A stretch of 33,795 nt of DNA from Peribolospora baueri (Eukaryota), in assembly GCA_029717555.1 (NCBI GenBank), contig JAMDHS010000135.1, forward strand, positions 1 to 33,795, written 5' to 3'. The translations under genes and the position numbers were made by a program. The notes beneath the pieces were generated by a model. The model was given only the letters and a program-made list of their open reading frames with translations, did no database searches and was not told where the DNA came from. How positions within the stretch are numbered: the stretch's first letter is position 1; the number at the start of each line of letters is the position of its first letter. Below are positions 1-33,795 of this stretch, one piece after another.

Positions 1-903
1 GCCGGTGCTGATGGGTGACGTTCGAAGCAACTTTGAGCTGGGACGCTGGAACGGCCGAGGCCGCCAGACTGGGAGAAGGGGCATTGGCGGAAGGCGCTTC
101 GAGTAGGGTGCCACGTGATGGCGCGGACTCCCCCAAGACACTCAGTAGATATGCGACAGGTGTGTAGCCAAATCAGCTCTTGACGGTCCAAGAATGCCAA
201 AGACTCAGAGGCGTTGGGGTGGGAGCAGACGCGGGTTCTGATGGAGTGGGCGGCATGGAGTGAAGGTTATGGCAAAACAGGATGAGAAAAGAGAAGGCCT
301 GCCAGTAATGATTACGAAAAAGCAGGGAGAGGAGAAGGCTGTGGATTGGATTGGATTGGATTGAAGATGGAGGAAGAACGGGTGGGGAACGGACCCCTCT
401 TTATAACTTTCTCCCCAGGGCTGGGCCCGGCCAAGCTCTTTCGTCCATGACGAGGACCTTGGTTGTTGATGTGAATGAAACAATGTCCGTCGCCGAATGC
501 GAATGAGACGATGTCCCGCCTTCGGGTGAAGGTTGCAAAGACAAGACAAGGTCGCTGTACAGAAGGAGCAAAGGAAGGGACAACGAAAGGAGGAAGTGCG
601 CGTGCGCGCAAGACGCGGTCGCTGTACCGAAGGAGCGACTGAAGGTGGTTGCTGCCCATACGGTCTAGTCATGATCGGTCGAGACGAGGGACGGAACCGG
701 CCGTCTGGTCCTCTCGATTCGTTCGCTGAGGACAGTACATACCTGTCGTACACTGTACGGTACTCGCTCCTGTGCTTGGCGGGTCGGCCGACCTGCCTGC
801 AGTTTGTAGTTGGGCGAGGTGGACGTCCGGAACGGGTGACCGACGTCGACGCGATAAGATCGACAGCCGCTCCCGATCAGACCGCTTCCCACCACCATTC
901 GCT

Positions 904-2111
904 ATGCCCGCTGACGACCCTACCACCGTAGTGAGGGTCACCACTACCTACCTCATCGTCCGCCATGGCGAGACAGATGAGAACGTTCAGCGTGAGTCGT
1001 CCGCGTGAGCTTGAGACGTTCATATGATATGGCAGAGGGGAAGTGCTTCCGCTCACCTTCCACCACTCATCCTCGCCTTCCGAATATCCTTCCTCCCAAA
1101 GGCATAATACAAGGCCAACTAGACACCCAGCTCAACGACCACGGTCGTGCCCAGGCTCGAGCTGTGGGCGAGGCGCTGCGCGGCATGCCAATTGACGAGG
1201 CGTGGACGAGCGATTTGCGCAGGGCCAGAGATGTACGGTCAGGTCCTTACTCTTCCTTCTCCTTGCCTAGACGCATTTCGTTGTCCAACCCCCCTCCGTC
1301 CTTTTTAACGCGAATCTGACGGAATGATTCACTTCCTCTTCTTCCTCTCGCGCCTTCTTCGCCTGTCACCCAGACCGCAGAGGCCATTATGGCCCACCAT
1401 CCAGGGGCGCATCTGCACGTTGAACCCCGGCTGCGAGAAAGGCGCATGGGTTCGTTGGAAGGCAAGACGTTCAGTCCCAGAAGGGACGATGTGAAGGGCA
1501 TCGAGTCGATGAAAGAGTGAGTGAGGACAGGCGGCAATGGACAGTATAGCCGCCACGGCGACCAGGCTGACCAAGTGGATTCGCCCTTGTACGACCTCGG
1601 TTCCTCTCTTCCGCTCCGCTCGACGTCGCAAAGACTTGTCCGTCGCCTGCAAGACTTCTACGACACTGTCTCCCGCCATCACCTCTCCTCTTCCACGCCA
1701 CTAAAGGATCGCACTTTCCTCTTCGTTTCCCACGGCGCTACGATCAAGACGTTTGTGCTCTTCGTGCTCGCCAACCACCCTTCCTTCACTCCCAGAGGCG
1801 GCATGAAGCTCGCCCCTGGCAGTGGGCTCGATGACGGGCGAGAGCTGGCCCTGACGAATGCGGGCATTACCGAAGTGAGAGTCGTGGAAGATGTGCCAGT
1901 CCCTTCCCGTGACGGTGACGATGCAGATGGGCCGAGGCCGAGGGGCGGAGGGACGGACGGTGGGAAGCAAGGCATCGCGCCGTCCCGGGAGCCGAAGAGC
2001 AAGGTGGTAGAAGCGACGCTCGTTCGATGGTCCGACCACCGACATACGCGGTTGGACCCTCGCAGTATTGACAACGTCGACGAGAAAGTGTCCAACTCGG
2101 CCACCATCTAA
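904..2111 (+). CDS. Histidine phosphatase superfamily (phosphoglycerate mutase-like) protein, 4 exons
   Basis: ATG 904. Motifs LIVRHGETDEN (RHG), GQLDTQLN, WTSDLRRARDTA, PRLRERRMGSLEG and VSHGATI join across GT-AG introns 992-1101, 1233-1373 and 1517-1633; TAA 2109-2111. Confidence 0.9.
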
Positions 2112-2406
2112 ATTCACTTCACGAGGCGATGCGAGGCATACCGACTTCTGAGGCTCCGCGAACGAGAGTACCCAAATTAAGCCACTTGATCCCTTTGTGT
2201 CATCGAAGTACCCGACCTTTATTAGACAGGAAGGATTGTTCGAACGGCGGTTTGCGGCCGCTTTGAGGGGATGGATGGACGGCGTCGGACGGCCGGCCGA
2301 CCGCCCGCCCTTGTATTCTTTGTAGATCTTCTGCACTCATGTTTATTACTGCCTGGCCTCGTGACCTTTCAACACCCGTTGGAACCTTGTGGCCGTCGCA
2401 GCCTTT

Positions 2407-2425
2407 CCCCCCCCCCCCCCCCCCC
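2407..2425 (+). repeat. Poly-C homopolymer (C19)
   Basis: Directly visible run of 19 C. Confidence 0.95.
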
Positions 2426-3054
2426 AAAAACCCCATCCCGCTTGTCCTTGGTTCACCCCATGCAGATGCGGACCATTACGTCCGGTGGGATGGCGAACGG
2501 CATGAAGTAGCCCAAGTACATGCGGTACGTGCCAGCGAACGCCCTGCGTCTACCCAGCTCCTCTGGGAGCAGCGAGCTCAGAAGCCGTGGCTGAGCAAGA
2601 TGAAGTTGGCGGCGCCGAGGCAAAGGTGCCCTTGGACACAATCCAGACAGGGCGAGCGGAGGTGACCTTGGACGCGATTCAGCTCGAAGGACTGAACGAC
2701 GAGGGGCGGAAGCCTGTGTGCAACACTGTAGAGCTGAGGTCCTTCAACCCTTTTCAGCTGCGTGAAAATGAAGCGGCGGGGAACGCATATCACCGGGCTC
2801 GCTGGAAACACATGCAGGCGCTGGAGTCGATCGTGATGATTCTACAACCATTATTATTAAACCATGAGAAAAAATGCCACGGACAATACCCCGGGGGCGG
2901 GGGGAGGGAGGGGTAGGCGAGGATGTGAGGAAAACAGGGGCGCAGGCAAAGTCAGTTGGTAAACCTCGAGAGAAACCAAGACGAGATGGACAAAGTGATC
3001 AAGAAAGAAAGCACGATGAATTCTACGTGTCCCTGGCGAAACGAATCGCTGGCT

Positions 3055-4767
3055 CTACTGTGAGATGAAAGTAGCTTCGTTGAAAAGGACGCCCTGGACG
3101 GTGAGCTTCTTGGCACCATCGGGAGTGGGCTCCGCCTCGTTCTTCTCATCCGTCCACGACGCCGGCAAGTGCACCGTCATTGTCGCCGGGTTGAGCCACT
3201 GTAGAACGGACGCAAGCGGCGACCGAGCGAGCGAGGAGACGGATGGTCATGATCGATCAGCGAACAGGGCCAAAGGGTAAAGGGAGAAAGAAAGAAGCGG
3301 GGGAAGAGAAGCGACGGAAGGCCAACCGGCTCACCTGGTAGATGTACGGCTTGGTGCCGGCGACGTAGTTGACCACCTTCTTGACGACGTAAGGAATCTC
3401 AGCAAGCACGTCCACCTTGTCGACCAGTCCTTTGCTCTCAGTCGACGGGAACTGCTTGCCGACATCGACCTGCAGCTCCGCTTTGACATTCTCTCCCTCG
3501 ACGATGGAGGAGGTGGCCGAGAGGAAGGGGCCCTGCCAGAGGTAGCTGATCGTGCCGGGAGCAGAGTAGCCCGTATCCTCGTCCTTGTTCTTCATCCCAT
3601 GCTCCACCGAGCTGCTCGAACCATCCACGGCGACATCGGCGTCGCCGGTGCCGGAGGAACCGAGCGTCTTCGTGCTAGCGGTGACGGCCACCAACCTACC
3701 ACCCACCACGACGCTCCCCACGTTCACCGTCGTCCTACCGCCAGACGGAGCCTTGTTGGAATAGGAGTCGGTGGTGGTGAACTCCATCATGATGCCGCTC
3801 ACGCCTCCATACTGGTCCGACTGAAAGTTGGCAAAGTTCCAGCTGGCGGCGACGAGGTTGGGCCGCATGCCCTGGATGGCGTGCACGAACATGCCTTGAC
3901 CTTTGGCATCGATGGCGGCACCCTTGTAGATGATGTGGCCGGAGGAGATGGCACGAGGCCAAAAGCGGTGGATCACGTAGCCCTCGTCCGATCCTCCTTG
4001 CTCCTCTCCCACTCCGAAGTACGAGAATCCTCCCTTGGGACCCTTGCCCAGCTTCCAGCCCTGTACAGAAGCGGGACGAGTCCAATACAGGGAAAGCTGC
4101 AGTTCGCTGTCCAGGTTGGCCGAGATGTTGTACGTCTCACTTCCGTCCGAGCCCGGCTCGAGAAGGATGGAGAATTGGTCTGCTTTTGCAGAACGCTTGT
4201 CGTATGTCTTTCCACCCGAGGAAGGCGGAGGCGTGGTGAACTTGGACACGTTCACCGACTTCCACACCCTTTGCTTCGTGATCGGGTTGTAGTACTTGAA
4301 CGTGATCTGTATCTGAGGGTACCAGAGGCTGTGGTGGGAGAAGCAGAAAGCGAGTATGAGCGTCCCTTCCGTCGGATCTGTACAGCTAAGCAGTGTTGAA
4401 ACGAAGGTGGACGGGAAGAGACGAGACGACGAAGAAAGACGCACCCCACTGAAGAGTGGATGATCTGGACGGTAGCGAAAGCGCCGTCCTCGAGCACGGT
4501 GTACCAGGTCTGCGTCTCAGTGGCGAACCCTCCATCGCAAGTCCATTGGGTATCTTTGGCTTCAAGAGGGCCAAATAGATCGGCCTGGGGCGTGGACGAA
4601 ACTGGGCGGAAGTTAGCCTTCTTGACTTGGCCGCTGCCGTCGCTCGTCGGCGTTTGGGATCTGGGAGAGTGGGGACGGTGTCAGCTCAAACCGGTCGGAC
4701 CAGTGATGCCCATTCTGGGGAGTCGATGGGCGCCTCACCCGCTTATCCAATTGGAGAACAGGGACAT
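3055..4767 (-). CDS. SVF1: Svf1-like (survival factor 1) protein, 4 exons
   Basis: ATG 4767 (MSLFSNWISG), then FGPLEAKDTQWTCDGGFATETQTWY...QIIHSSVG/LWYPQIQITFKYYNP...HRFWPR...FVHAIQGMRPNLVAASWNFANFQ...MMEFTTT...VDVLAEIPYVVKKVVNYVAGTKPYIYQ/WLNPA...LFNEATFISQ*. Canonical GT-AG introns; TAG 3055-3057. Confidence 0.92.
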
Positions 4768-5449
4768 GGTGGGGCAGATGTCGAGGGTCAAGCAGAACGG
4801 AAGGCCACGCCGGTGGAGGAAAGGAGGTGAGCGACCGATCCCCTTCAGGTGCGAGCAACATCATCGTCGCATCGAGATCGGACGTACGCGGGGTTAGGTC
4901 ATTCAGTGTCATTGATAGGGTTCGCGTGTACGTCGAAGTGACATGACATGACGGTGGACGCTGAATAGAGCATGCCACTGCACAACCCAGCTAGGACTTC
5001 TGCTCTACTTCTATGCTGAGCGTGAACACCCCCGAGTCCTGGCAGTGCTGTATATTGAGATGTATCTGCAGCAACGTCGGCCTGGCGCACCATTAGGTGT
5101 CAGCTCTCTTCGATAGAAAGAGGGATGGAAGATGAAAGGGCTGAGCAGGCGCTCAGGTTAGAAGACAGCACGTCTGACAAGAGTAGCTGCTGATGTCATC
5201 AGGCCTGAGCCGTGTCAGGTTCCTCGGTGTCCCCAACCTGCCTGCCCTCATTTGCGTGCTCATACCTGGCGTACGTATCTCTCAGCAGCGAAGTAAATGA
5301 TGTTGTAGTCACGGCTCATGTTCATCACAGCTCACGTTCACGTACCGTGTGGGATGGAATGGGACATGCGATTCGAGTGGTCAGGGGAAGGATCTACGCA
5401 TGTGCTCCTCAGGAGGTGGCAATGTACACTCCACTGGGGACAAAGTGAG

Positions 5450-5450
<1 letters not shown>

Positions 5451-5492
<42 letters not shown>
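5451..5492 (+). repeat. (CT)21 microsatellite
   Basis: Directly visible dinucleotide run. Confidence 0.95.
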
Positions 5493-5495
<3 letters not shown>

Positions 5496-6290
5496 GTCTA
5501 TGATATTGCTCCAGTTTGCCAAGTCTTAACGATCAAAGAGTGGCTTGTCCAAAGGCATTCTTGGTTGTGCATTTGGGCGCTTGCTGGACCAGGGAAAGCT
5601 CTTCGGAGAACTCTCCTTCGTCGGACACAGATTTGGATGGAGCACGAGTGACGTCTTTGCAAGATGTTCTAATGAATGTGGCGCACCGAGGGATGACATC
5701 GTCAACCTATTCCCTCCTTCGGGGCGCGTGTCGGTGGCTCGTCCATAGTGTAGCCCCCGAGGTCTTTGCTATGGCCGACTTCGCGAGGGACGGGGACGAG
5801 AAAGCCAAGGATTCCTTTACGGCCGGAGACGAGTCCGGGCATGTCGCGTTCCATGGAGATGGTGTGAGCGAGAAGAGAATGCCAGAAAGTTTAACAGAGA
5901 GAAGGAGGAAGAGAGATCAATATGGTATCGGCAAGGATATAGATCAGTTCAACTCGAAGAAGTGGGCGAGACCAGCTTGGTAGATGGAATGTAGTGGCTC
6001 ACCTCTGCCGTCCTCCTGGCCCAGGTACGTGTATATCGTTCGCCACGTGCTCCACCACGTGAGCCAGCATCGAACATCAGCATCGCCCACCAGCGTCGAC
6101 CATCTCTCTCACACTTCAAGGACTCCTCGATTCATCTCATAGCTCATATCGCTCCCTCCTGCCGCACCTACTCTCCCGAAGAGGCCGGGCGGAAGGAAGC
6201 TAGGAAGGAAGGAAGACGTGGTCCTCAGCTCTTTAATTATATCTCCATCGCCGCTCTCTTCACCGCAAGTCCATTCCATAGGAGCCCACA

Positions 6291-8484
6291 ATGCTCTGCC
6301 TTCAGCGCTGTTCCGCCCGTTTGAGGGCTTCTCACAGCCCGAGGTCTTTTGGTGCACGCACCACCGTTGGCCCTCTTTGGCTTGCGTCTCCATCTGCGCC
6401 GCCTGCGCGAACTTTCAAGAGCGTCCCAAGGCCGAGCTTCCTTGTCACCGCCGGCTTCAGCAAACCGGCGGTCGCCCGGATGCCCCTCTCCACCAGGCGT
6501 CCTTTTCATTCGACACAGCCCACAAGGGCGATGTTCCCCATGTTAATCAAGCCAATACTCAAGAGCTTCCTCTCCATTCACGCTCTCCAACCGTACCTCC
6601 GCCTAAGCCTCACCCTGCTTCCTTTCACCTCCTTTTTCCGCGCCCGAACCCTCCGCTACGTAGCCGCGGCCAAGGGTGTAGATCCGGAGCAAATATTGAA
6701 TCACCCGCATATCAAGTGGAAGCAACGTATCCTGTGGGCTCTCATCCTCATCCCACCATCTCTACTAGGGCTGACTATCCTTGCCGGTCTCGAGCGGACG
6801 CCCGTCACGGGCCGGTGGAGGGTGGTGTTGGTAAGTCCGCAGGAGGAAGAGGACCTCCGGCGGCAGATGATTGCAGAAGTCTCGGCGGCCCGCTCTCAGC
6901 GGGGTTCGGGCGACGAGATCGCGGCGACGACGACATTGACGGCCTGGGAGGGGAAGGTGGCTGAAGTGTTGGGGGTCAGTCGGGAGGAGTTGATGAAGAG
7001 CGTTCTAAGGAAGGAGGATGACTGGCGCGTCGCTTGGGCGGAGGACACTCTTCATCGGCTCGAGATGGGCTCTCTTGCCCTCACTCAGTGCGATCAAACG
7101 CAGCGAAGTGTAGCTGGGCCTCTGCCTCAACCTGCTCGCAACGGCGACGACGACTTTCGCCCGCCCCCAACGGCCTATCCTCTCGTCCCTCGCTCCCGAC
7201 TGTCCAAGAGATTACACGGCTGCTTTCATCAGCTTTACGACGACCAGTCGCCCTCGCCCGTTTTGGGCGCGCCTGGTGCCGCCTATAACGCAGCCCCGTA
7301 TTCGCTTATGGTCATTGACCATCCGGAAGTGAACGCTTTCTCCCTCGGTGGCGGACTGAACACATCGGCCTCCGAAGCTGAGACTGGCGCGGGCGTCAGT
7401 CCTGGGGTTATCGTCGTCTTCTCTGGATTCCTCGATCACATCATTAGCACCACCGGCCTCGACTCATCCGCACAAGCTGCCTTGGCCGAAGCGGAGGAAC
7501 GCGAGCGACGATTCAGAGGAGCCGCGCGACGGAGTGGAGACGGAAGGCGGCGATGGGAGGGAGACATAAAATCGGGCGATAGTCATGGCGACCACGCATC
7601 AGGTCTGTTCTCCTCTATCCTTCGTAGCTTCGGCTTCGGAACAGGCGGAGCGTACGTCACCGCCTTGTCTACCCAGCACACGCTTCGACACCCGCGGGTC
7701 GGGCCTTTGTTTTACCGCTCTTCATCCGACGGTGGCCTCAGCGGAGGCGGTCCGCGCGATGATTCAGTCTCAGCCACCTCGCACCTCGCCGTGCTCCTCT
7801 CGCACGAGCTCTCCCACCTCCTCCTCTCCCACCACATCGAGACGCTCTCCGTGCGCACCTTGCTCCTCCCCTCTCTCTCCTCTATTCTCGTCGACGTCAT
7901 CCGCGTCGTTGCATGGCCTCTGAGCGCGATGGGTGGACCGTTCGTGAACGACGCGGTGGAGGCGGCAGGCAGGTCGTTACAGGAGGCGATGGGCTTGCAG
8001 GGATTCAGGCTAGGATCTGGGGGGAAGGAAGAGGAAATTTACGCTCCTCCGTCCTGTTTCGATAGGCAGCTGGAGACGGAGGCCGATCTTGTGGGATTAA
8101 GGTGAGTCGAGCGGCCGCGACCGTCGTGCTCCCGAGTCTGTCCGGCGATCAAGTCGGAGCTCGAGTTCAGTGCCACTGACCGTCCCATCCGCTTTCCCGC
8201 TCTTCTTGCCCTTTTCCACACTGTCCAGACTGCTCTATGCCGCCTCCGTAGACCCGCGCTCGGCCCTCTCCTTTTGGCGTTTGCTCAGTTCCATCTCCTC
8301 ATCAGCCATCTCCCAGGGCGACTCGGCATCGAATCAACGCGTGGCCGAGGGGCCATCAAAAGGGCTCTGCCTCCGCAACTGTCCGTTTACGAACCTCTTC
8401 GAGACGCATCCCGTTGATGAGGAGCGCTTGAAGGGAATCGAGTTAGAGCTGGGAAGGTGGAGGAGGGCAAAAAGCCAGGGTTGA
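6291..8484 (+). CDS. OMA1: Mitochondrial metalloendopeptidase OMA1-like (peptidase M48), 2 exons
   Basis: Arg/Ser-rich N-terminus resembling a mitochondrial presequence, a TM segment followed by LERTPVTGRWR, then PEVNAFS, IVVFSGFLD, zinc motif HELSH (HExxH), ETEADLVGLRLL and C-terminal ETHP..ERL. Intron 8102-8228; TGA 8482-8484. Confidence 0.85.
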
Positions 8485-19995: not shown

Positions 19996-20056
19996 GGTGG
20001 CACGTATCAGCTGGCACCGTAGTAGGAAGATGTCTCAGTTTTGGGGTCACTTGCGC
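19996..20056 (+). repeat. Dispersed direct repeat, copy 1 (41-bp exact core plus ~20-bp near-exact tail) upstream of the YggS/PROSC gene
   Basis: GGTGGCACGTATCAGCTGGCACCGTAGTAGGAAGATGTCTC is identical to 26278-26318; followed by AGTTTTGGGGTCACTTGCGC. Confidence 0.95.
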
Positions 20057-23557: not shown

Positions 23558-24428
23558 GGTGCTCGTCCAGCACTAACTGAGTTGTGAATATGGTAGAATA
23601 TGAGGTGAGGGAGGTATATGCGGTGGAAAGGGTCTATCCTTGCTCCTCGCCGCCTTGCTGGTGATGGTGGGTGATGGTGGTGGTGCGTCTGGTGGCAGTG
23701 GACTGGCTGATACTCCGTGGGAACTGGCTCGTTCGCCGCAGCCTTTCGGGATCGGGTCAACGAGGCATGCCGCAGTTCACCGGGACAGCTGCCCATATCG
23801 TTCACCACTGCGGCCACGTCCCATTCGCCTTATGCGAAAAGAGAACGTACGAGAGAAGAGAAGGGAGGGGAGAGCGGGATCGCCTGGGTACGCACGCAAG
23901 CATGCATGGAATAAGCGCGGACGTCCGTGCGATGGGGCGCGTTGAGTCTCTCGATGGACAGGTCAACTCGTTATCGCTTCGGAGGGCCGTGACACGGGAT
24001 GGAGAGCAATGGACCCGCGGTCGTTCGAAGGTGGCCTCAGTTCGCCAGGTGCCCTCGGACTTGGGCGTGCAGCATTGACAGACCAGTCTGGTACGGCAAG
24101 AGAGACATAGTTGTGAGTGCGAAGCGAGCTGTCGACGCGGATGATACCTGTTCATTTGTCTGACCGTCGCATCGTACACTCGTTGACCCCCGAAGCAATG
24201 CAATTACTGCGAGCAAGATCCTTCTTTGTCCTTCTTTCCTCTGCAAACAGCTGGTCAACTATCGTCGTTTACTGACGAGAATAAGAAAAGCGACGTGGAG
24301 AAGCGAAAGAAACTGGACGAGAATACGATTTAGGAAGTTATAATTGCCTTTGGCGGCATCTGTAACAGGAGCCTCATCTCAAAGCTCGGACCTCGCTCAA
24401 GGGGTCCTTATTACTTATTCAGCCATCC

Positions 24429-25430
24429 TCAGACTTCCCCATACTTCCTCAGACTTGAAGATGTGACCCTTCTGGATGTATAACAATAACCGAGGTGATG
24501 TGGTACTCGATACTGGAGACCGATAAACGTTGCTGTTATTTTGCCTGTTGGTGAGTTGACCCTCAGGACAGTGGTTTGCCCAATGACCAGTATTGCTGCA
24601 ACAGCAGCAGCTGCCAATCTAACAACGCTGACTTCTACTGCTGTTGCTATTTCCGCTGTGAAGGTTTCCAGAGCGCTGGATGTTGTCTTGGCGACGAGGG
24701 TTCCGATGATATCCTCAACCCTCGCCCTAATGTTAAGATCATATCCAAAACCCTTTTGCCGAAGCTGGGTCTTGTATTAAAAGTATGTCCCCGCACAGAA
24801 ACCAATAAGGGAATGGTGGCCTTGTACCCCGGGGTCATGCCGCCATCAGTACTGATCAGATCAACCCAGAACTCGCGGTCGTAAAAGCATTGTCGCGCAT
24901 TTCTACTGGCAAACGTGGTCCATTGATCATACTCTGCTGGTATGTCTTCCTACGAGCAGCAAAACAGACAGGTAGGCTTGCTAGTACGACGACGCACGTC
25001 CCTGGGAGTTGAAAGACTGGGGGACGCTCACTGTTTGTTGTCAGAACAACCGTGTCAACTGTCACCTGCCCGTCCATTTCTTCGTCAGTGAAGTCTCTGC
25101 CCCCGTCCGGCCATTGTAGCCAGAAGCTGCCGAACTCATCTACAGTACTACTTTACTTCAATCGTCATACTCGAGTCCATGAAAAGGGAATACCCAACCC
25201 ATCAAGAAAACCATAATTGTTGCGACGAGGTCGTTTGTTCACGTGGTAAATCCTCGACAAGTGCCGCAGCTTCTCTTTCCCCCACACTGCAAGCGCATCG
25301 TAGCAGCGGCTGGCTCCGGCACACTTGTCCCGCCGGGGCCAACAGCGACGATCTGTCCATCCATCGCTTTGATCTTCGTCTAGGCCTCTCCGCCGTCACC
25401 ACTTTTTAGTATCTCTCGGGCAAGCTACGA
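24429..25430. pseudogene. Degenerate coding-like remnant of unknown family
   Basis: Lower-GC, partly CpG-poor stretch with protein-like fragments in several frames interrupted by stops, and splice-site-like motifs on the minus strand. No intact gene model could be built. Confidence 0.3.
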
Positions 25431-26277: not shown

Positions 26278-26340
26278 GGTGGCACGTATCAGCTGGCACC
26301 GTAGTAGGAAGATGTCTCTCAGTTTTGCGGTCACTTGCGC
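26278..26340 (+). repeat. Dispersed direct repeat, copy 2
   Basis: 41-bp exact match to 19996-20036, then TC-AGTTTTGCGGTCACTTGCGC (2-nt insertion and 1 substitution versus copy 1). Confidence 0.95.
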
Positions 26341-27546
26341 GCCTCATTTCTTCTTTCCTCTCCCCCATCGGTCCCTCGGAGCATTTCGTCTCGCTCGTTG
26401 ACGTCCCTTTTGTATGGGTTGACCCGGCCCTTCGTCTGTATAGAAGCGCTCTTTACTGTACAGCGTCTACCGCTGGATTTCTGCACTCCGTCCTTGCTCC
26501 CTCGCTCCTTTCCTCCTCTGCTCGCTGCGATGTCGGACGGCTCGGGTGGTCGTTTTGCAGGTCCGGCGGTGCTACGGGAATAACGATCGCAGGAGAGGCG
26601 ACCGCCCACTCTGTCCAGATTCAATTGATCTATTGCAACATTATGCGCGGGACGTCCCCTCCACTAGAACCGTCTCGCGTTCGCAGGGACGACAGTGCGC
26701 TTGCCACTCCTTACGCCGATGAGGACCGAGTATGCTTGGTCCCATTCGGACAAAACGGGCCGGGCCTCTTAGTCAGGTTCAAAGCGTCGAGATCAAGCAA
26801 GAGACCGGCTTGTTGAGCCGTCCCGAATGCGAGGCGGACGAGCAGCGTACTTACTTGCTCGACTGACTCGGGAAATTTCTTTTCTTTCTCCTTTACACAA
26901 CAGCATTTCGAGCTCGACGCCGAGGCGGACTTGATCGCAATGAATCGACCGTCTTAGCGCGCCCTGATGTCGAGGTAAAAACTTGCTTGATCCTCTAGTG
27001 GACACTGAAGCGGCATAGAAAGATGTTGTCGACTGCTAAGCCTTGCCCCGGGTCCCGGGCTTGTGTGCCGTTCCCGGGGGGGACGCGCCTTTTCGCCAAG
27101 GCTCGCCCGCCTCGGCTACCACGTCGCTCGTTCGTTCAGTACCACTGCACAGTGTCGCTAAGGGGCAGGGCGGGCGGACAGCCATCGGCTGCGTGCAGGA
27201 ATGACCGAACGCACTCCGCACTCCTCGGCACCTTTCTTCCCTCCTTTTGTCACTATCAAACTTTCTCATTCCTTTGTCTTCTCCCCATTGTCCCATTCTG
27301 TCACTTGCAGCACAAACGTTGCAAATCTCGCTCGAGAAGGGGCGCTGCATCTTCCCGGACGAGGACACGCAGAAGGGATTTTCAAATACGAACACATAGC
27401 TCGATACAAGGAGTGGTGCAGGTGAGGGGGCGGGGCAATGAATACAGGAGGGAGTGCGGAGGTGGAAAGGTACGTTCGCTGGACATCTGGGTGGCCCTGG
27501 CCGAAGGGTTCGTGTTTTGACGCGGGACGGCAACAGCAGTGGCCCC

Positions 27547-28248
27547 TTAGAAGACCTCGAGAATGCGCTGCAAAGCGGCAGGCTGTACTGCTTGCCTGTC
27601 GCACTTGGTCCAGTAGACTTTGTGCTTTTTAGTCAATTCACTGTACAGGCAATGCCGGGCGTGCGTGGTAAGTCCTCCCCTGAAGACGCGGTTTGTTATC
27701 ACCGTTGGGGGCGCGTCGTCCTCAAAGAACCGCACAGGGAGAAGGCCGGTGGAGCGATGCTCGGGCAGCTCAAATTCCCTCACTAGTGTGCCGGTCCTGT
27801 CGTTGCTCAGCTCGAGGGAGAAGGCACGGCCGGCGGGAGAGGCTTGCATGAAGCCCACGAACTCATCGAGGAAGTCGTCGAACCCCTCGACGCCCTGACT
27901 GTCGTTCGTTGTGTATTCGTAGGCCTGCAGCCTTCCTTCCGGCGTGACGAGGTATAGGTGCCCTTGCAGCTCGCCGCCGGGCAAGGAGGGTCTAGGTCTG
28001 CAAACCTCCCCTACTTCGCCCTCTCCCACGTCCACCTGGTACGATATCATGATGTTGTCCTCCTCGATGTCGAAGTGTTTGTGTACAAGGTGAAGGGAGA
28101 AGTGCTCGGTGGCTGCATGGCGCCTGAAGATCTCCTCCAGCTTGGCGAGCTCCTCACTAAATTCTTCCCAAGCGCCTGCCGCATCGGTAATGTAGGGCAG
28201 GGTATTGTAGTCGGCAGCGGCGATAGGCTTGTTGAGAAGAAGGGTCAT
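27547..28248 (-). CDS. Intronless hypothetical protein (~233 aa), uncharacterised
   Basis: Open frame from ATG 28248 (MTLLLNKPIAAADYNTLPYI...IFRRHAATEHFSLHLVHKHFDIEEDNIMI...GRLQAYEY...FLDEFVGFM...) to TAA 27547-27549; globular composition. The frame stays open upstream to 28458 without an ATG. Confidence 0.7.
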   Translation of the reverse strand: MTLLLNKPIAAADYNTLPYITDAAGAWEEFSEELAKLEEIFRRHAATEHFSLHLVHKHFDIEEDNIMISYQVDVGEGEVGEVCRPRPSLPGGELQGHLYLVTPEGRLQAYEYTTNDSQGVEGFDDFLDEFVGFMQASPAGRAFSLELSNDRTGTLVREFELPEHRSTGLLPVRFFEDDAPPTVITNRVFRGGLTTHARHCLYSELTKKHKVYWTKCDRQAVQPAALQRILEVF

Positions 28249-28995
28249 CTTGTTTGCTTGTGGGGGCAGATACGAGACGACATCGGACAACCGAGCTGCT
28301 TTATACTCTCCTTGGGAGATCTCTCTTGGGGCTGATTCGGCTCGATCCCGGTGACAATGGCCGACTTCGGCCAGCTGATGTCGTAAGTGCTTATTGTCGC
28401 TCGATTGAGGACTTGGAGCTTGACGTTGAACTTGCGGTTGAGCTTGTGACAAGGCCACGTCGTCTGTGACGAGAAAGCCGAGCCTTTCCCTTAACGACGA
28501 TTGGACCGGTGAAATATCATGGAAAGTCTCAATGCTTTGATGTCTTCAGCGCCGACCGCCAACCAGATTTCCTTTTTGCCCTCGTCAATGTGCTCAGTGG
28601 GCCATGCACAGCATCACCGTTGCATATCCGTGACGCCAAAACTCGGTTGGGACAAACACCTGCTGAAATGGAGGGCGAGATAGGTGGCATGTTGCAGAAC
28701 GAGATCTGGGACGAGTGCAGAGAAGGCCCAGTCTCACTGAAACGCAGCAGGTGAGCACAAGGCGTCCCAAAAAGTCCAGGTTGGCTCGTTTGGAAGGAAG
28801 GTGCGGCTACGCTTCCCTGAAACGAGCCTCGCCATTGTTGGTCTCGGGTCCGAGATTGGGGGCCTGCCTGCTCTCGAGATCCCTTCCGACAACGAGAAGT
28901 TGTTCTCCGCCTTTTCCATAACTGGGCTGACAATAGAAGGCACAGGGACAAGCTCACTGGTTTGGTTTGGTTTTCAGGCCGACACTAGACAAGAG

Positions 28996-30681
28996 AGTTC
29001 CGTGTCGACACTAATAACCACCCGCCAAGGCCGGCAAAGACGCGACGCGACATCCTGCCTGCCCATCCTATCGTCCTCATCCACCGCGTAAATTAGCCAA
29101 CAATAAAGTTTGAATAGGCGTCGCCACCGCGCTATCACCCTCGCCCTCGCCCTGACCTGCCCTCAGTTTCGAGTTCATTTCCTTACCACCACCACGGATC
29201 GTTCTCCTCTTTGTCGGCTCTGCCACCACTTTTTTTCATCGCCGCGGCCTCCTGGTGTCCCTGTGAGCCTCTCCGACTGTCTTCGGCTACTTTTCCAAAG
29301 CAGGCTCACGCGGTTGGCACGTCGACCACAGCCGGCGGTTTTGCCTCCTGCTTACCCACTCGGCACCTCGAACTTCGCCCCTACACGCCAAGATGTCGGC
29401 CGTGCTCCTGAGGGCGGATAGAGAGTTCAGATATTTCAAGCACTCCTTGTGGAGCTACTCGGTGTGGGGAGCGGAGGTATGGTACGAGAACTGGTACGTG
29501 CGCATCGTCGACAAGCCGGACACCCTCGCCGCCAGAGTGCTACGCTTCGAGGAGGACTTGCCCGAATACGAGGTTAACTTGGTTCTGCACGGCGATGAGG
29601 TACGCCGAACGGAGTACAAGGCCGACGACGGTGGAAGGGAACGCTACAGCCCCGTCAGCAGCGACCTGATGAAACGGCTGCCCGTTGTGTCGCCGGTGGA
29701 GGGAATACATTTCGTCAAGCGCCCGAGGGGAGATCGGGAAGTCACAAACTTGCTGGCAATGTTGGGACGCCCTGGCGTCATTCAGGTGCTGGGAAGGACG
29801 GCCGACAATGACTTGGTGTTTCCTCTCTACCCGTCGAGCATGGAAGCGCTTATTTGCTTAAGCCCCGAGCGCCCAGTGACGCAGATAAAGACGTGGTGCC
29901 TTCAAGTGCTGGACAGCCTGGAACAGCTGCATGCGCAAGGCATATGTCACGGCGACGTGGGCCTCCGCAACCTCCTCGACGCGGAGCCCCTCGTACTCTG
30001 TGACCTTGAGGGACCCTTTGAGGAGCCAAGCCCTGCGATTCCGGAGGCTCGCAAAGGCTTTCCCTTGAACGAGGCATCGGACGTGTACCTCTTCTCGTTG
30101 TGCTTGTGGGAGATGGTGAATCGCAACGCTCCTCGGCCCTTCATCAAGCTCGATCTGCAGGGCCCCTTCGGAGACGTCTTCCGCGCGTGCTCTGCTGAGG
30201 ACCCAGCCCTCAGGCCGTCTCTAGGGGAGATCAGAGTGATGCTGGAGGCCGTGGATGCGCCATAGAGGAAGAGTATGCGTGCCCGGTGCGTTGCTCGCCG
30301 CCTTGAATCGCGAACAGGTGTCTAGCCCGCATGGCGCTTTCGTCCGCTGATCTTTCTTCTCTGCCCGCGGTGCTTTGCCCTACTGCTTTCTTTGGCCTCC
30401 GCAGCACCTTTCCCTTCCCTCTTCGGTTTTCAGCAATGTCACTTTGTTTCGCTTCTCACCTCGACGCCGCTCATGAACAGAACCGCACTCGTCCCTTCAG
30501 GTCCCTCCGGTTATCTTCTCGGATGGCCTTCTGATAACCAGGGCAGTGCAGCTGGAGGTTATGAATTGATACGAAAATGATGATGACGAGGACTCGGAGG
30601 GCTGCTCTTATACTAGATGACAGGAGAGAGACCACAAAGGAAAGGCAATAAAGCAAAGCGCCTGATGGGTGCCTTCAGACG
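28996..30681 (+). repeat. Tandem segmental duplication, unit 1 (period 1696 bp)
   Basis: Begins near GTTCCGTGTCGACACTAATAACCACC and ends at CCTGATGGGTGCCTTCAGACG; aligns nearly end to end with ~30692-32369. Boundaries approximate to a few nt. Confidence 0.95.
29393..30265 (+). CDS. Intronless atypical protein kinase-like protein, copy A (290 aa)
   Basis: HFVKR (beta3 Lys), REVTNL (alphaC Glu), CHGDVGLRNLL (catalytic loop), LCDLE (DFG equivalent), IPE (APE equivalent), SDVYLFSLCLWEM and C..EDPALRPS. No GxGxxG loop visible. Confidence 0.88.
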   Translation: MSAVLLRADREFRYFKHSLWSYSVWGAEVWYENWYVRIVDKPDTLAARVLRFEEDLPEYEVNLVLHGDEVRRTEYKADDGGRERYSPVSSDLMKRLPVVSPVEGIHFVKRPRGDREVTNLLAMLGRPGVIQVLGRTADNDLVFPLYPSSMEALICLSPERPVTQIKTWCLQVLDSLEQLHAQGICHGDVGLRNLLDAEPLVLCDLEGPFEEPSPAIPEARKGFPLNEASDVYLFSLCLWEMVNRNAPRPFIKLDLQGPFGDVFRACSAEDPALRPSLGEIRVMLEAVDAP

Positions 30682-30691
30682 ATGACTAGAG

Positions 30692-32369
30692 TGTTCCGTG
30701 TCGACACTAATAACCACCCGCCAAGGCCGGCAAAGACGCGACGCCACATCCTGCCTGCCCATCCTATCGTCCTCATCCACCGCGTAAATTAGCCAACAAT
30801 AAAGTTTGAATAGGCGTCGCCACTGCGCTATCACCCTCGCCCTCGCCCTGACCTGCCCTCAGTCTCGAGTTCATTTCCTTACCACCACCACGGATCGTTC
30901 TCCTCTTTGTCGGCTCTGCCACCACTTTTTTTCATCGCCGCGGCCTCCTGGTGTCCCTGTGAGCCTCTCCGACTGTCTTCGGCTACTTTTCCAAAGCAGG
31001 CTCACGCGGTTGACACGTCGACCACAGCCGGCGGTTTTGCCTCCTGCTTACCCACTCGGCACCTCGAACTTCGCCCCTACACGCCAAGATGTCGGCCGTG
31101 GTCCTCAGGGCGGGTAGAGAGTTCAGATATTTCAAGCACTCCTTGTGGATCTACTCGGTGTGGGGAGCGGAGGTATGGTACGAGAACTGGTACGTGCGCA
31201 TCGTCGACAAGCCGGACACCCTCGCCGCCAGAGTGCTACGCTTCGAGGAGGACCTGCCCGAATACGAGGTTAACTTGGTTCTGCACGGCGATGAGGTGCG
31301 CCGAACGGAGTACAAGGCCGAAGGAGCTAGAAGGGAACGCTACAGCTCCGTCAGCGGCGACGTGATGAACCGGCTGCCCGTTGTGTCGCCGGTGGAGGGA
31401 ATACATTTCGTCAAGCGCCCGAGGGGAGATCGGGAAGTCACAAACTTGCTGGCGATGTTGGGACGCCCTGGCGTCATTCAGGTGCTGGGAAGGACGGCCG
31501 ACAATGACTTGGTGTTTCCTCTCTACCCGACCGACATGGAAACGCTTATTTGCTTAAGCCCCGAGCGCCCCGTGACGCAGATAAAGACGTGGTGCCTTCA
31601 AGTGCTGGACAGCCTGGAACAGCTGCATGCGCAAGGCATATGTCACGGCGACGTGGGCCTCCACAACCTCCTCGACGCGGAGCCCCTCGTACTCTGTGAC
31701 CTTGAGGGACCCTGGGAGGAGCCAATCCCCCACATTCCGGAGGCTCGCAAAGGCTTTCCCTTAAACGAGGCATCGGACGTGTACCTCTTCTCGTTGTGCT
31801 TGTGGCAGATGGTGAACCGCTCCGCTCCTCGGCCCTTCATCAAGCTCGATCTGCAGGGCCCCTTCGGAGACGTCTTCCGCGCGTGCGCTGCTGAGGACCC
31901 AGCCCTCAGGCCGTCTCTAGGGGAGATCAGAGTGATGCTGGAGGCCGTGGATGCGCCATAGAGGAAGAGTATGCGTGCCCGGTGCGTTGCTCGCCGCCTT
32001 GAATCGCGAACAGGTGTCTAGCCCGCATGGCGCTTTCGTCCGCTGATCTTTCTTCTCTGCCCGCGGTGCTTTGCCCTACTGCTTTCTTTGGCCTCCGCAG
32101 CACCTTTCCCTTCCATCTTCGGTTTTCAGCAATGTCACTTTGTTTCGCTTCTCACCCCGACGCCGCTCATGAACAGAACCGCACTCGTCCCTTCTGGTCC
32201 CTCCGGTTATCTTCTCGGATGGCCTTCTGATACCCAAGGCAGTGTGCAATGAATTGATATGAAAATGATGATGACGAGGACTCGGAGGGCTGCTCTTATA
32301 CTAGGTGACAGGAGAGAGACCACAAAGGAAAGGGAAAAAAAGCGAAGAGCCTGATGGGTGCCTTCAGAC
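30692..32369 (+). repeat. Tandem segmental duplication, unit 2
   Basis: Near-identical copy of 28996-30681, with one small indel region in the 3' flank (~32240-32250). Confidence 0.95.
31089..31961 (+). CDS. Intronless atypical protein kinase-like protein, copy B (290 aa)
   Basis: Same motifs as copy A (CHGDVGLHNLL, LCDLE, IPE, SDVYLF); intact ORF with about 21 amino-acid differences from copy A by manual alignment. Confidence 0.88.
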   Translation: MSAVVLRAGREFRYFKHSLWIYSVWGAEVWYENWYVRIVDKPDTLAARVLRFEEDLPEYEVNLVLHGDEVRRTEYKAEGARRERYSSVSGDVMNRLPVVSPVEGIHFVKRPRGDREVTNLLAMLGRPGVIQVLGRTADNDLVFPLYPTDMETLICLSPERPVTQIKTWCLQVLDSLEQLHAQGICHGDVGLHNLLDAEPLVLCDLEGPWEEPIPHIPEARKGFPLNEASDVYLFSLCLWQMVNRSAPRPFIKLDLQGPFGDVFRACAAEDPALRPSLGEIRVMLEAVDAP

Positions 32370-32958
32370 GGAGAATAAAAGGTAATAGGACGGCCAGTGT
32401 GGCAGCCGCACTTCGGCACCAAGCCCTCAGGAAACTGCCACTTCCATTCATTTAATAAGATCCTCATTCAATCACCAGCATAGCGCTCTTCCTCCGCCCT
32501 CCCATTCTTGAGAATCGCCGCGCAGCTAGGCAAAATCTGGTCGACATCGACGCGTAGGGATTCTCCGAGTTGTTGAATGCATCCAGACCACTCGCATAGG
32601 CTACGAGAAATCCGTCTTGTGCTTTTCTCAAACCCCTCTCCACCTTTTTCTTGGTTATTTAGTCTGCAGTGCCAAGCTAGAAGCCAAATATCGAGACAGA
32701 GGTCGACAGCTTCAACGCGCTAAAGCTTGGGCCTAGATGGCCGTGCGGCAAGCGGAAGGAAGAAGGCCGCGCCTCTACAGACGAGAAAAGCGATGTTTAT
32801 GTCGCTCCTCTCGTCTTCAGTCTGGCCGTCCTCATGTCCTATTATTTTCTCATCCCAGAGATCGTCCTTCCCTTCCCCCTTTCTTTCTTCCATTCTCCCA
32901 CCTCGACCCCCAGGATCGGTTGGCTGGAGAACTAGGTAGCCGTACACTTCATGGATTA

Positions 32959-33795
32959 TTACAAGGTCGCCTGGTCGGAGGCTTGAGCCAGAGGAAGCAA
33001 AGAGTGGTGAAGCTCTGTGAGGAGAGGTACATGACGGTGTGTGCTTTCACGTGTGCAGCTATTGCAGTAGCCATTGCGAACCTGTTTGGAAATGCGAGGG
33101 AGGAGAAGGCACGGGAAAGAGATTAGCTTCATTGATTCTCCACTCGTCGTCGGCTGCGTCCTCACCGCAGGTATCACGGCTGGTTCCCCCGGGTATATGA
33201 GGCGAGAAGCCCAGAGAGAGCCCGCGTGGATTCTAACCCACGACATTCTGGCCGTCTCTCGAGAAACTTCACCAGCTGCCTTGCTGCCTCTTCCCACTCT
33301 TCCAAGCCCCGAGACTGCTTTGCCATGAATTCCCAGAATGCGTCCTTGCTGCAAAGAGACGAGATGACGTCCTGAAGTTCTGCGTCGCTCATCAAAGGTC
33401 CGAGCCGGTGCGCCATCCCGCGCCTCTCCTCCTCGGCGCTGTGCGGAACGATTGGAGTGACCAAGAAATCAATGGAGTCCAGACGTCGGGGGCTCATTCC
33501 ATGTCCGCTTACCTGTAGAGCTCGAGGTACATGTCACGGTCAGTTTCGTAGTCCTCCTCACCCCAGCCCTTGATGAGCGATGGATAACTTGCCGCCTCCA
33601 CCAGTGGAAGCGGCTCGCCACACTTAAAGCCGACCCAATCGATGATCCTAAGAATTAACGCGTCAACGCGCCGGAGATCAGCCTTGAGTACGAGCAACAG
33701 TCGCAAATCATCTCGAGGCGGTGGGGCTCACCCGACAATATTCAACTCGTTATCGACGAGTATATTGGAGCCGCTGAGATCGCCGTGAACCATAG
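32959..33795 (-). CDS. Partial multi-exon hypothetical protein (5' end outside window; 3' end uncertain)
   Basis: Helical-looking exons ...LLLVLKADLRRVDALILRIIDWVGF...DMYLELYR|GTAAG ... CAG|AEEERRGMAHRLGPLMSDAELQDVISSLCSKDAFWEFMAKQ...FLERRPEC|GTGGGT, followed by further GT-AG intron candidates. No family recognised. Confidence 0.5.

Follow-up and report, generated by a model that had tools for sequence, protein, structure and literature searches.

A dispersed fungal cassette with a kinase variable in its substrate groove and a candidate partner with a hypervariable loop

Residues that set the specificity of protein kinases are normally slow to change, and the bacterial kinase toxin-antitoxin pairs HipBST and TakA-TglT are adjacent two-gene modules in which kinase and partner recognise each other at the active site. 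The locus described here lies in a contig of the fungus Peribolospora baueri (JAMDHS010000135.1, of which the stretch analysed, positions 1 to 33,795, is called the window) and holds two tandem kinase genes between a gene designated ORF-L and a gene of the APH family of phosphotransferases. The closest described eukaryotic systems, as represented by the extracts of the papers cited throughout this text, each resemble it in part. Spok genes, which are meiotic drivers in Podospora, use a kinase domain as homologue-specific resistance and belong to a mobile block that occurs at several loci and undergoes gene conversion (PMC6660238). At somA, a somatic-incompatibility locus of the basidiomycete Coprinopsis cinerea, polymorphic kinase genes vary in number and each is paired with a partner gene (bioRxiv 10.64898/2026.06.24.733965). 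Unclassified kinases of fungal accessory regions, such as those in the lineage-specific kinome of Fusarium oxysporum, share with it a eukaryotic protein kinase (ePK) fold, a weak Pkinase match and a place in a multi-copy variable region (PMC6001611), and PKR, opposed by poxvirus K3, is under positive selection on its substrate-binding surface while its core is constrained (PMC11556786). The extract of a further paper (PMC7849911) adds nothing on kinases at vic loci, and a literature search, with most subscription papers outside it, found no description of a kinase/ORF-L pair. At the present locus, kinase specificity residues turn over among copies with about 95% identity elsewhere, and the adjoining candidate substrate changes in step. 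Our best reading is that the cassette is a mobile two-gene recognition module of kinase and partner, in which the groove of the one and a loop of the other co-diversify.

The cassette occupies 27120..33795 of the window. ORF-L (27547..28248, minus strand; 233 amino acids (aa)), the candidate partner, which remained without a match in family and fold searches, stands head-to-head with the kinase across a shared spacer of 1.1 kb, and the APH-family gene stands tail-to-tail with the kinase (3' part at 33174..33795, minus strand; it continues on contig C157 and its 3' end is approximate). The kinase is present as copy A (29393..30265, plus strand), an intronless open reading frame (ORF) of 290 aa from an orphan Dikarya family of ePK fold, and as copy B (31089..31961, plus strand), of equal length and, by alignment, with 21 residues unlike A. 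The window contains two duplicated units, at 28988..30681 and 30684..32370 (both plus strand), each made of upstream region, kinase and downstream region, with ORF-L and the APH gene outside and two filler bases at the junction (30682..30683). Two further near-full kinase copies are present in the assembly, an intact one on contig C136 and one on C21 with a 2-nucleotide (nt) deletion at codons 22-23 and a 9-nt insertion. On C21 the cassette has frameshifts in all three genes and has lost the spacer between ORF-L and kinase; elsewhere its pieces are joined by exact overlaps in the order C394-C517-C136-C178, with second exits to C49 and C115, so that C136 overlaps exactly with C517, with C394 or C49, and with C178 or C115. 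The different outer flanks of C21, together with the joins of C136, indicate separate loci and not haplotypes. An origin of the additional copies in the haplotypes of a polyploid was rejected, since the outer flanks of C21 and C394 differ. A first-pass annotation of the window, made from its letters, had described a tandem kinase pair; the tandem stands, but that picture lacked the dispersed, multi-locus cassette and the hypervariable loop of the neighbouring gene.

Variation among the four kinase copies is concentrated in the groove. Because two codon models discussed below, M2a and a hotspot model, tied, the groove was defined by the positions that S1 Table of PMC6611643 classes as 'substrate proximal', 18 of which were mapped by motif anchors (PKA 82-84 have no counterpart). 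Of these 18 positions, nine vary among the four copies; of the 164 core positions outside the set, 14 do (Fisher p = 4e-5; entropy-matched p = 0.002). As high an enrichment was given by 0 of 181 circular shifts. The enrichment persists with the three intact copies and with A and B alone, and is weaker for the C136/C21 pair alone (matched p 0.04-0.16). As the variable sites had been seen before the mapping, both hinge registers and a set without the hinge were run; the second register left 8 of 18 variable (matched p = 0.012) and the set without hinge 6 of 15 (matched p = 0.041). Codons differing between A and B (21) and between C136 and C21 (22) coincide at eight sites (p = 3e-5), compared with one shared among silent-only sites. 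Three or four residues occur among the four copies at codons 21, 80, 148, 156, 192, 209, 213, 215 and 246, and at codon 213 all four differ.

In copy A the variable segments are, all on the plus strand, the hinge/alphaD codons 148-157 (29834..29863; 149 = PKA 127), the catalytic-loop codons 189-192 (29957..29968; 192 = PKA 170), the P+1 codons 209-215 (30017..30037; 213 = PKA 203, 215 = PKA 205) and the alphaF and alphaF-alphaG codons 240-246 (30110..30130; 240 = PKA 230, 246 = PKA 236). PKA 127, 170 and 230, that is, kinase residues 149, 192 and 240, are P-3 and P-2/P-5 determinants (PMC3219626). All the variable segments had been said to line the substrate groove; this is borne out for these four, whereas an N-terminal cluster at codons 78-94 lies, by homology, outside the canonical groove. 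Spatial clustering is by motif-anchored mapping, not by distances, with the N-terminal sites (21, 78-94) unplaced.

Re-alignment of A and B returned the counts first reported, 36 nt differences with 21 non-synonymous and eight synonymous codon changes, six codons carrying multi-nucleotide changes; both ORFs are intact, the direct duplication is present and all the listed motif swaps were recovered. The catalytic residues are indeed unchanged: K109, E116, D188, N193, D204 and E218 (beta3 Lys, alphaC Glu, catalytic Asp and Asn, Mg-binding Asp and APE Glu), together with the alphaF Asp, D230, do not vary among the four copies, and their conservation across 59 aligned sequences is 90% or more. The reported contrast between coding sequence and flanks proved partly a matter of where the flank was cut. 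The stated figures hold (4 of 396 nt differ on the upstream side, and 3 of the 270 nt that come first on the downstream side), but the last 138 aligned nt of the downstream flank carry 11 further substitutions as well as gaps, and the first 9 nt of the upstream flank at the junction add two differences; the p value accordingly rises from 0.0002 against the flanks first chosen to 0.037 against all aligned flank. With four copies, 84 of 871 coding positions vary against 36 of 706 in the flanks (p = 0.0008), and four-fold sites (9 of 124 variable) do not differ from the flanks (p = 0.39). The pairwise comparison of A and B gave non-synonymous and synonymous rates, dN and dS, of 0.041 and 0.049, a ratio of 0.83, and therefore not above 1.

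Resolved by position, the pattern is one in which diversifying selection probably acts on the groove. Mean pairwise proportions of non-synonymous and synonymous differences (pN and pS) are 0.222 and 0.082 in the groove and 0.013 and 0.041 in the core away from it, and dN/dS (omega) is 2.9-4.3 in the groove and 0.23-0.41 in the core, groove omega above 1 being significant in 8 of 8 fits with a common synonymous rate (p 5e-6 to 0.012), so that the core is under constraint while the groove turns over. Model M2a was preferred to M1a (twice the log-likelihood difference 34.6, p = 3e-8; with multi-nucleotide changes allowed 13.0, p = 0.0015). The same data were also set against an account with no positive selection, in which clustered multi-nucleotide mutation or short conversion tracts from more distant copies combine with relaxed constraint in a decaying accessory cassette. 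A hotspot model, with all changes raised about 13-fold in about 7% of codons at omega 1, fits the whole gene equally well (log-likelihood -1623.2 vs -1625.2 for M2a), and the first claim of diversification at recognition sites has to be read beside that fit. Adding omega above 1 to the hotspot model gave p 0.15-0.22, the three intact copies with multi-nucleotide changes allowed gave p = 0.11, and with a free local rate groove omega above 1 was significant in only 3 of 8 fits. Moreover, pS is 0.13 within one codon of the groove and 0.047 elsewhere, the neighbouring genes show pN/pS near 1 against the broken C21 copy, and the variable sites also vary across the kinase family (mean entropy 3.3 vs 2.3). 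However, function-blind hotspots should miss the substrate-proximal positions on which the variation falls, the kinase core is constrained, and raised pS beside selected sites is also expected under old balancing selection with conversion. The loop of ORF-L described below, with its extreme divergence and intact frame, also speaks against an account without selection, which we regard as improbable.

The kinase is itself distant from named families. A search of 1.84 billion representative sequences gave 205 matches at E up to 0.001, the best of which share 30-39% identity with the kinase; among 10 relatives examined by name, the seven that carry an organism all come from basidiomycetes, under generic or hypothetical protein names (Kwoniella, Rhizoctonia, Termitomyces, Lyophyllum, Moniliophthora). 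The closest by score, P0001 and P0002 of Kwoniella, have two and three kinase domains of the family per protein, and in relative P0040 the domain is joined to a Pkinase_fungal domain. A word-index homologue search returned 0 of 1675 candidates. In Pfam, A and B gave only partial PF07714 and PF00069 matches, and none to PF17667 (FunK1 / Pkinase_fungal) at E up to 0.1. The structure model (predicted local distance difference test, pLDDT, 91.8) has the bilobal ePK fold over residues 82-290, with Csk matched at Z 20.5 (root mean square deviation 2.4, 194 residues aligned) and 267 chains at Z 8 or more. The canonical Ser/Thr ePK motifs are altered: there is no GxGxxG, HGDVG(A)L replaces HRDLK, DLE replaces DFG, and the activation segment is very short, with almost no activation loop. 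The kinase is presumably an active phosphotransfer enzyme.

Variation in ORF-L centres on a single loop. Among the three copies covering codons 76-217, codons 202-208 (27625..27645, minus strand), which make up 21 of 426 nt, account for 18 of the 37 minimum changes (permutation p = 5e-5); they lie between the invariant H199-C200-L201 and H209-K210. Between C39 and C394, 10 of 21 nt differ inside this loop and 6 of 381 outside. The loop alleles YSELTKK, WMIRSER and FIKKTEL differ at 38-67% of nucleotides without a stop or frameshift, position 206 being Thr, Ser and Thr. No local template for these alleles was found in the contig stretches searched, where only one 10-mer of one allele recurs. 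Family searches gave no Pfam, NCBIfam or PADLOC match, the word-index search 0 of 323 candidates, and language-model look-alikes were weak (0.90-0.91) and belonged to unnamed fungal and actinobacterial clusters. The model of ORF-L is moderate (pLDDT 69, with the tail 191-221 under 50), and a fold search with it reached Z 3.0 at best and no Foldseek E below 0.001. The one match by sequence, to Scone-E (E 0.0004, 27 residues), was set aside, as no stretch passed, and a likeness of the HxxHC motif to UstYa/DUF3328 was dropped, this being a single motif, missing in the paralogues and without a Pfam match.

Residue 206 may be a phospho-acceptor, to judge from the sequences. With 206 as putative acceptor, the ORF-L next to kinase A (Ala215) has Lys at P+1, and where residue 215 of the kinase is His or Tyr the adjoining ORF-L has Glu there; at P-2, Glu accompanies Arg192 and Lys accompanies Gln192. 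These numbers are too small to test. The kinase is read as an intracellular ePK-fold enzyme with a core under purifying selection and a peptide-binding groove that, by the statistics above, diversifies; in ORF-L, a loop of seven residues keeps a Ser/Thr and changes faster still. Each cassette would be a lock-and-key pair in which the ORF-L loop is the cognate substrate of its kinase, a proposal to which we give a probability of roughly 0.45. Less firmly, phosphorylation might disarm or license ORF-L, as in a poison-antidote or self/non-self system, and a strain would in that case gain from an extra kinase dose and from extra specificities. Such a gain would explain the duplication of the kinase alone, the groove differences between A and B and the shuffling of groove segments described next.

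Evidence on the tandem comes from contigs of four public runs (X1-X4) of one study, of which X3 and X4 are possibly the source strain and hence not independent. Contig depth is not equal to copy number, rare variants are dropped from run contigs, and run differences are those in 40 of 213 rows. In X1 (30592-31231) and X2 (30591-30802) the junction lies within a single contig, and it is covered in X3 and X4. In X4 the junction has a depth of 86, C21-specific joints have 91-94, the C136 joint has 184 and the flank common to all loci has 378, a pattern of 1:1:2:4 as expected for four loci. That the pair is an assembly artefact joining two haplotypes might be argued from the fragmentation of the assembly (668 contigs), the collapse of parts of the cassette and the fact that none of the listed contigs spans the whole stretch. 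Given the crossing contigs, the X4 depths and the single match of Met6 in the assembly, the suspicion finds no support and is scarcely credible.

In X1 the kinase unit has a depth of 2186-2354 against about 352-364 in the flank, and in X2 1273 against 186-235; these contig depths suggest about 6-7 tandem kinase units per flank, and the amplified part is the kinase alone, not ORF-L. Two X1 contigs (29567-29907 and 29939-30308) have 10 differences each, all of which are listed, so that their codons can be read. They show a mosaic allele, B-like at codons 78-81, 209 and 213-215, A-like at 87-94, 148, 152, 192, 240 and 267, and with new residues at 149 (Asn), 157 (Lys) and 246 (Gly, in a codon unlike the Gly codon of C136); groove segments are thus shuffled between copies. 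X1 and X2 also share an ORF-L change, K207E (27630). The suggestion of two alleles captured in tandem is compatible with the data, the junction being common to runs with a homogeneous-looking array and a mosaic allele. The same co-diversification and linkage would arise with the roles reversed, the kinase as a toxic or signalling effector and the ORF-L loop inhibiting it as a pseudosubstrate, in the manner of HipT-HipS or PKA-PKI. A stoichiometric inhibitor is ill-suited to so many kinase units per ORF-L flank, copy B is without an ORF-L of its own, and an inhibitor has no need to keep a hydroxyl residue, which makes this polarity quite improbable.

Linkage of ORF-L to kinases, for which the evidence is one genome, recurs in its distant paralogues (about 20% identity), which adjoin four other kinase-fold genes in the assembly. 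Three pairs are head-to-head (C61/C133, C73/C660 and C53:19039), and on C99 the kinase-fold gene stands behind an APH gene on the same strand; the kinases of C133 and C660 are cut by a contig end and were recognised by their likeness to those of C61 and C73. In the C73/C660 pair of ORF-L paralogues, which are 96% identical, divergence is once more greatest in the Cys/His tail. No kinase motif occurred in the stretch read at the ORF-L fragments C329, C53:10420, C3 and C494, and scans of prokaryote genomes, metagenomes and plasmids gave no loci of the ORF-L or kinase families. On C208 (87057-88770) an intact gene of the ORF-L family lies, by eye, directly behind a GNAT acetyltransferase-like gene, an arrangement which suggests that other modifying enzymes can replace the kinase. 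In the second kinase family (C348, C340, C73), codons 530-531 differ in all three copies.

The groove might instead be selected against an outside antagonist or target, such as a mycoviral pseudosubstrate or a competitor or host protein, in the manner of PKR and poxvirus K3, with the ORF-L loop selected separately or serving as a decoy for the same antagonist. The selected positions here take in alphaD and the alphaF-alphaG loop, and the selected windows of PKR likewise cover helices alphaD and alphaG and the activation loop (PMC11556786); the kinase is amplified without ORF-L, and for the second-family kinase on C197 no ORF-L homologue was found upstream. Alone, however, such an antagonist leaves unexplained both the repeated head-to-head pairing of ORF-L with unrelated kinase-fold genes and the retained Ser/Thr, and we consider it unlikely, if a serious contender.

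Against the lock-and-key reading itself weigh, besides the model comparisons given above, several observations. The sample consists of four kinase alleles and three ORF-L alleles from one assembly, with four runs of one study. The kinase is without the Gly-rich motif and the catalytic-loop Lys, and the retention of Ser/Thr at 206 amounts to three codons one step apart (ACT/AGT/ACT). Two ORF-L paralogues with open frames, on C208 and C472, have no kinase motif beside them as far as the sequence was read (on C472 for only some 300 nt upstream), the tails of the C660 and C208 paralogues are without Ser/Thr in the comparable loop, and the second-family kinase is most variable at residues 520-533, an insert after APE and outside the canonical groove. 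As the second-family tail keeps no Ser/Thr and its kinase varies outside the groove, this replicate is only partial. Finally, kinase-fold genes may just be common in these accessory regions, the cassette itself holding two. The full proposal, of an undescribed eukaryotic lock-and-key cassette, selfish or self/non-self, whose linked kinase would read the ORF-L loop allele-specifically, whose ORF-L family, possibly with a new fold, would recruit different kinase clades, and whose tandem arrays would stockpile kinase alleles for immunity, is accordingly tentative and somewhat doubtful as a whole.

Outside the cassette, the neighbours in the window are fungal housekeeping genes. Met6 is only 63-67% identical to its best 120 listed relatives, the named ones all from basidiomycetes, and the lineage thus appears poorly sampled. 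No convincing terminal repeats were found around the cassette copies; the C21 copy is flanked on either side by CGAT, but at 4 bp this is not long enough to count. A kinase fragment lies on C96, which ends in telomere repeats; there (1-8427) the fragment is decayed and partly inverted, with a LINE-like element on its 5' side, and the APH gene is 78% like that at C21 28811-29904. Fold-back inversions occur among broken cassette pieces (C3 41832-42164, C394 428-922, C494, C115 and C96), and on C3 ORF-L pieces lie directly behind a NACHT-like frame. Short TTAGGG telomere-like tracts are found inside or beside several cassette copies, and at C73 (2412-2431) such a tract comes after the altered ORF-L tail. 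Another recurrent element, short and with a TATA-like core, may be a promoter or terminator module carried by cassettes; it occurs at 30588-30648 and 32276-32337 of the window (minus strand) and on C73, C373, C273, C139 and C195; on C73 and C373 it adjoins a segment matching window 27230-27303. The window also holds an exact direct repeat of 41 nt (about 60 nt at 95%) at 19996-20056 and 26278-26340, 6.3 kb apart, and, at about 24400-25300 on the minus strand, broken frames that by eye resemble a decayed flavin monooxygenase fragment.

If the pairing of kinase and ORF-L is true, it supplies natural cognate and non-cognate alleles with which kinase-substrate co-evolution becomes directly testable, gives a first function to two widespread uncharacterised fungal families, and points to a system of conflict or recognition in the basidiomycetes, a group whose first allorecognition locus has only lately been mapped. 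Should the lock-and-key reading hold as well, the cassettes would form a natural library of co-evolving kinase and substrate specificities.

Set beside the described systems, the cassette resembles HipBST and TakA-TglT in two-gene layout, PADLOC giving only partial kinase-domain matches and nothing for ORF-L. Compared by description only, the Fusarium oxysporum kinome differs in that the extract of its account mentions neither groove-centred selection nor a linked partner gene (PMC6001611). Spok combines a nuclease domain and an ELK-like kinase in a single protein (PMC6660238), whereas here there are two genes, for an ePK-fold kinase and for its candidate partner; no nuclease match was found in Pfam for the 290-aa kinase-only ORF or for ORF-L, so that the Spok architecture is absent. 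The somA kinases have a NACHT partner in tail-to-tail arrangement, a flanking leucine-rich repeat (LRR) gene and alleles less than 50% similar (bioRxiv 10.64898/2026.06.24.733965); the present cassette, again compared by description, has neither NACHT nor LRR, its copies are 91-93% identical and its neighbours are ORF-L and the APH gene. PKR, a vertebrate kinase, is encoded by one gene copy, carries dsRNA-binding domains and acts on a fixed substrate, eIF2-alpha (PMC11556786), in contrast to the present small, multi-copy fungal kinase with its linked variable partner. On this comparison, the cassette is a variant of known kinase-based conflict or recognition systems.

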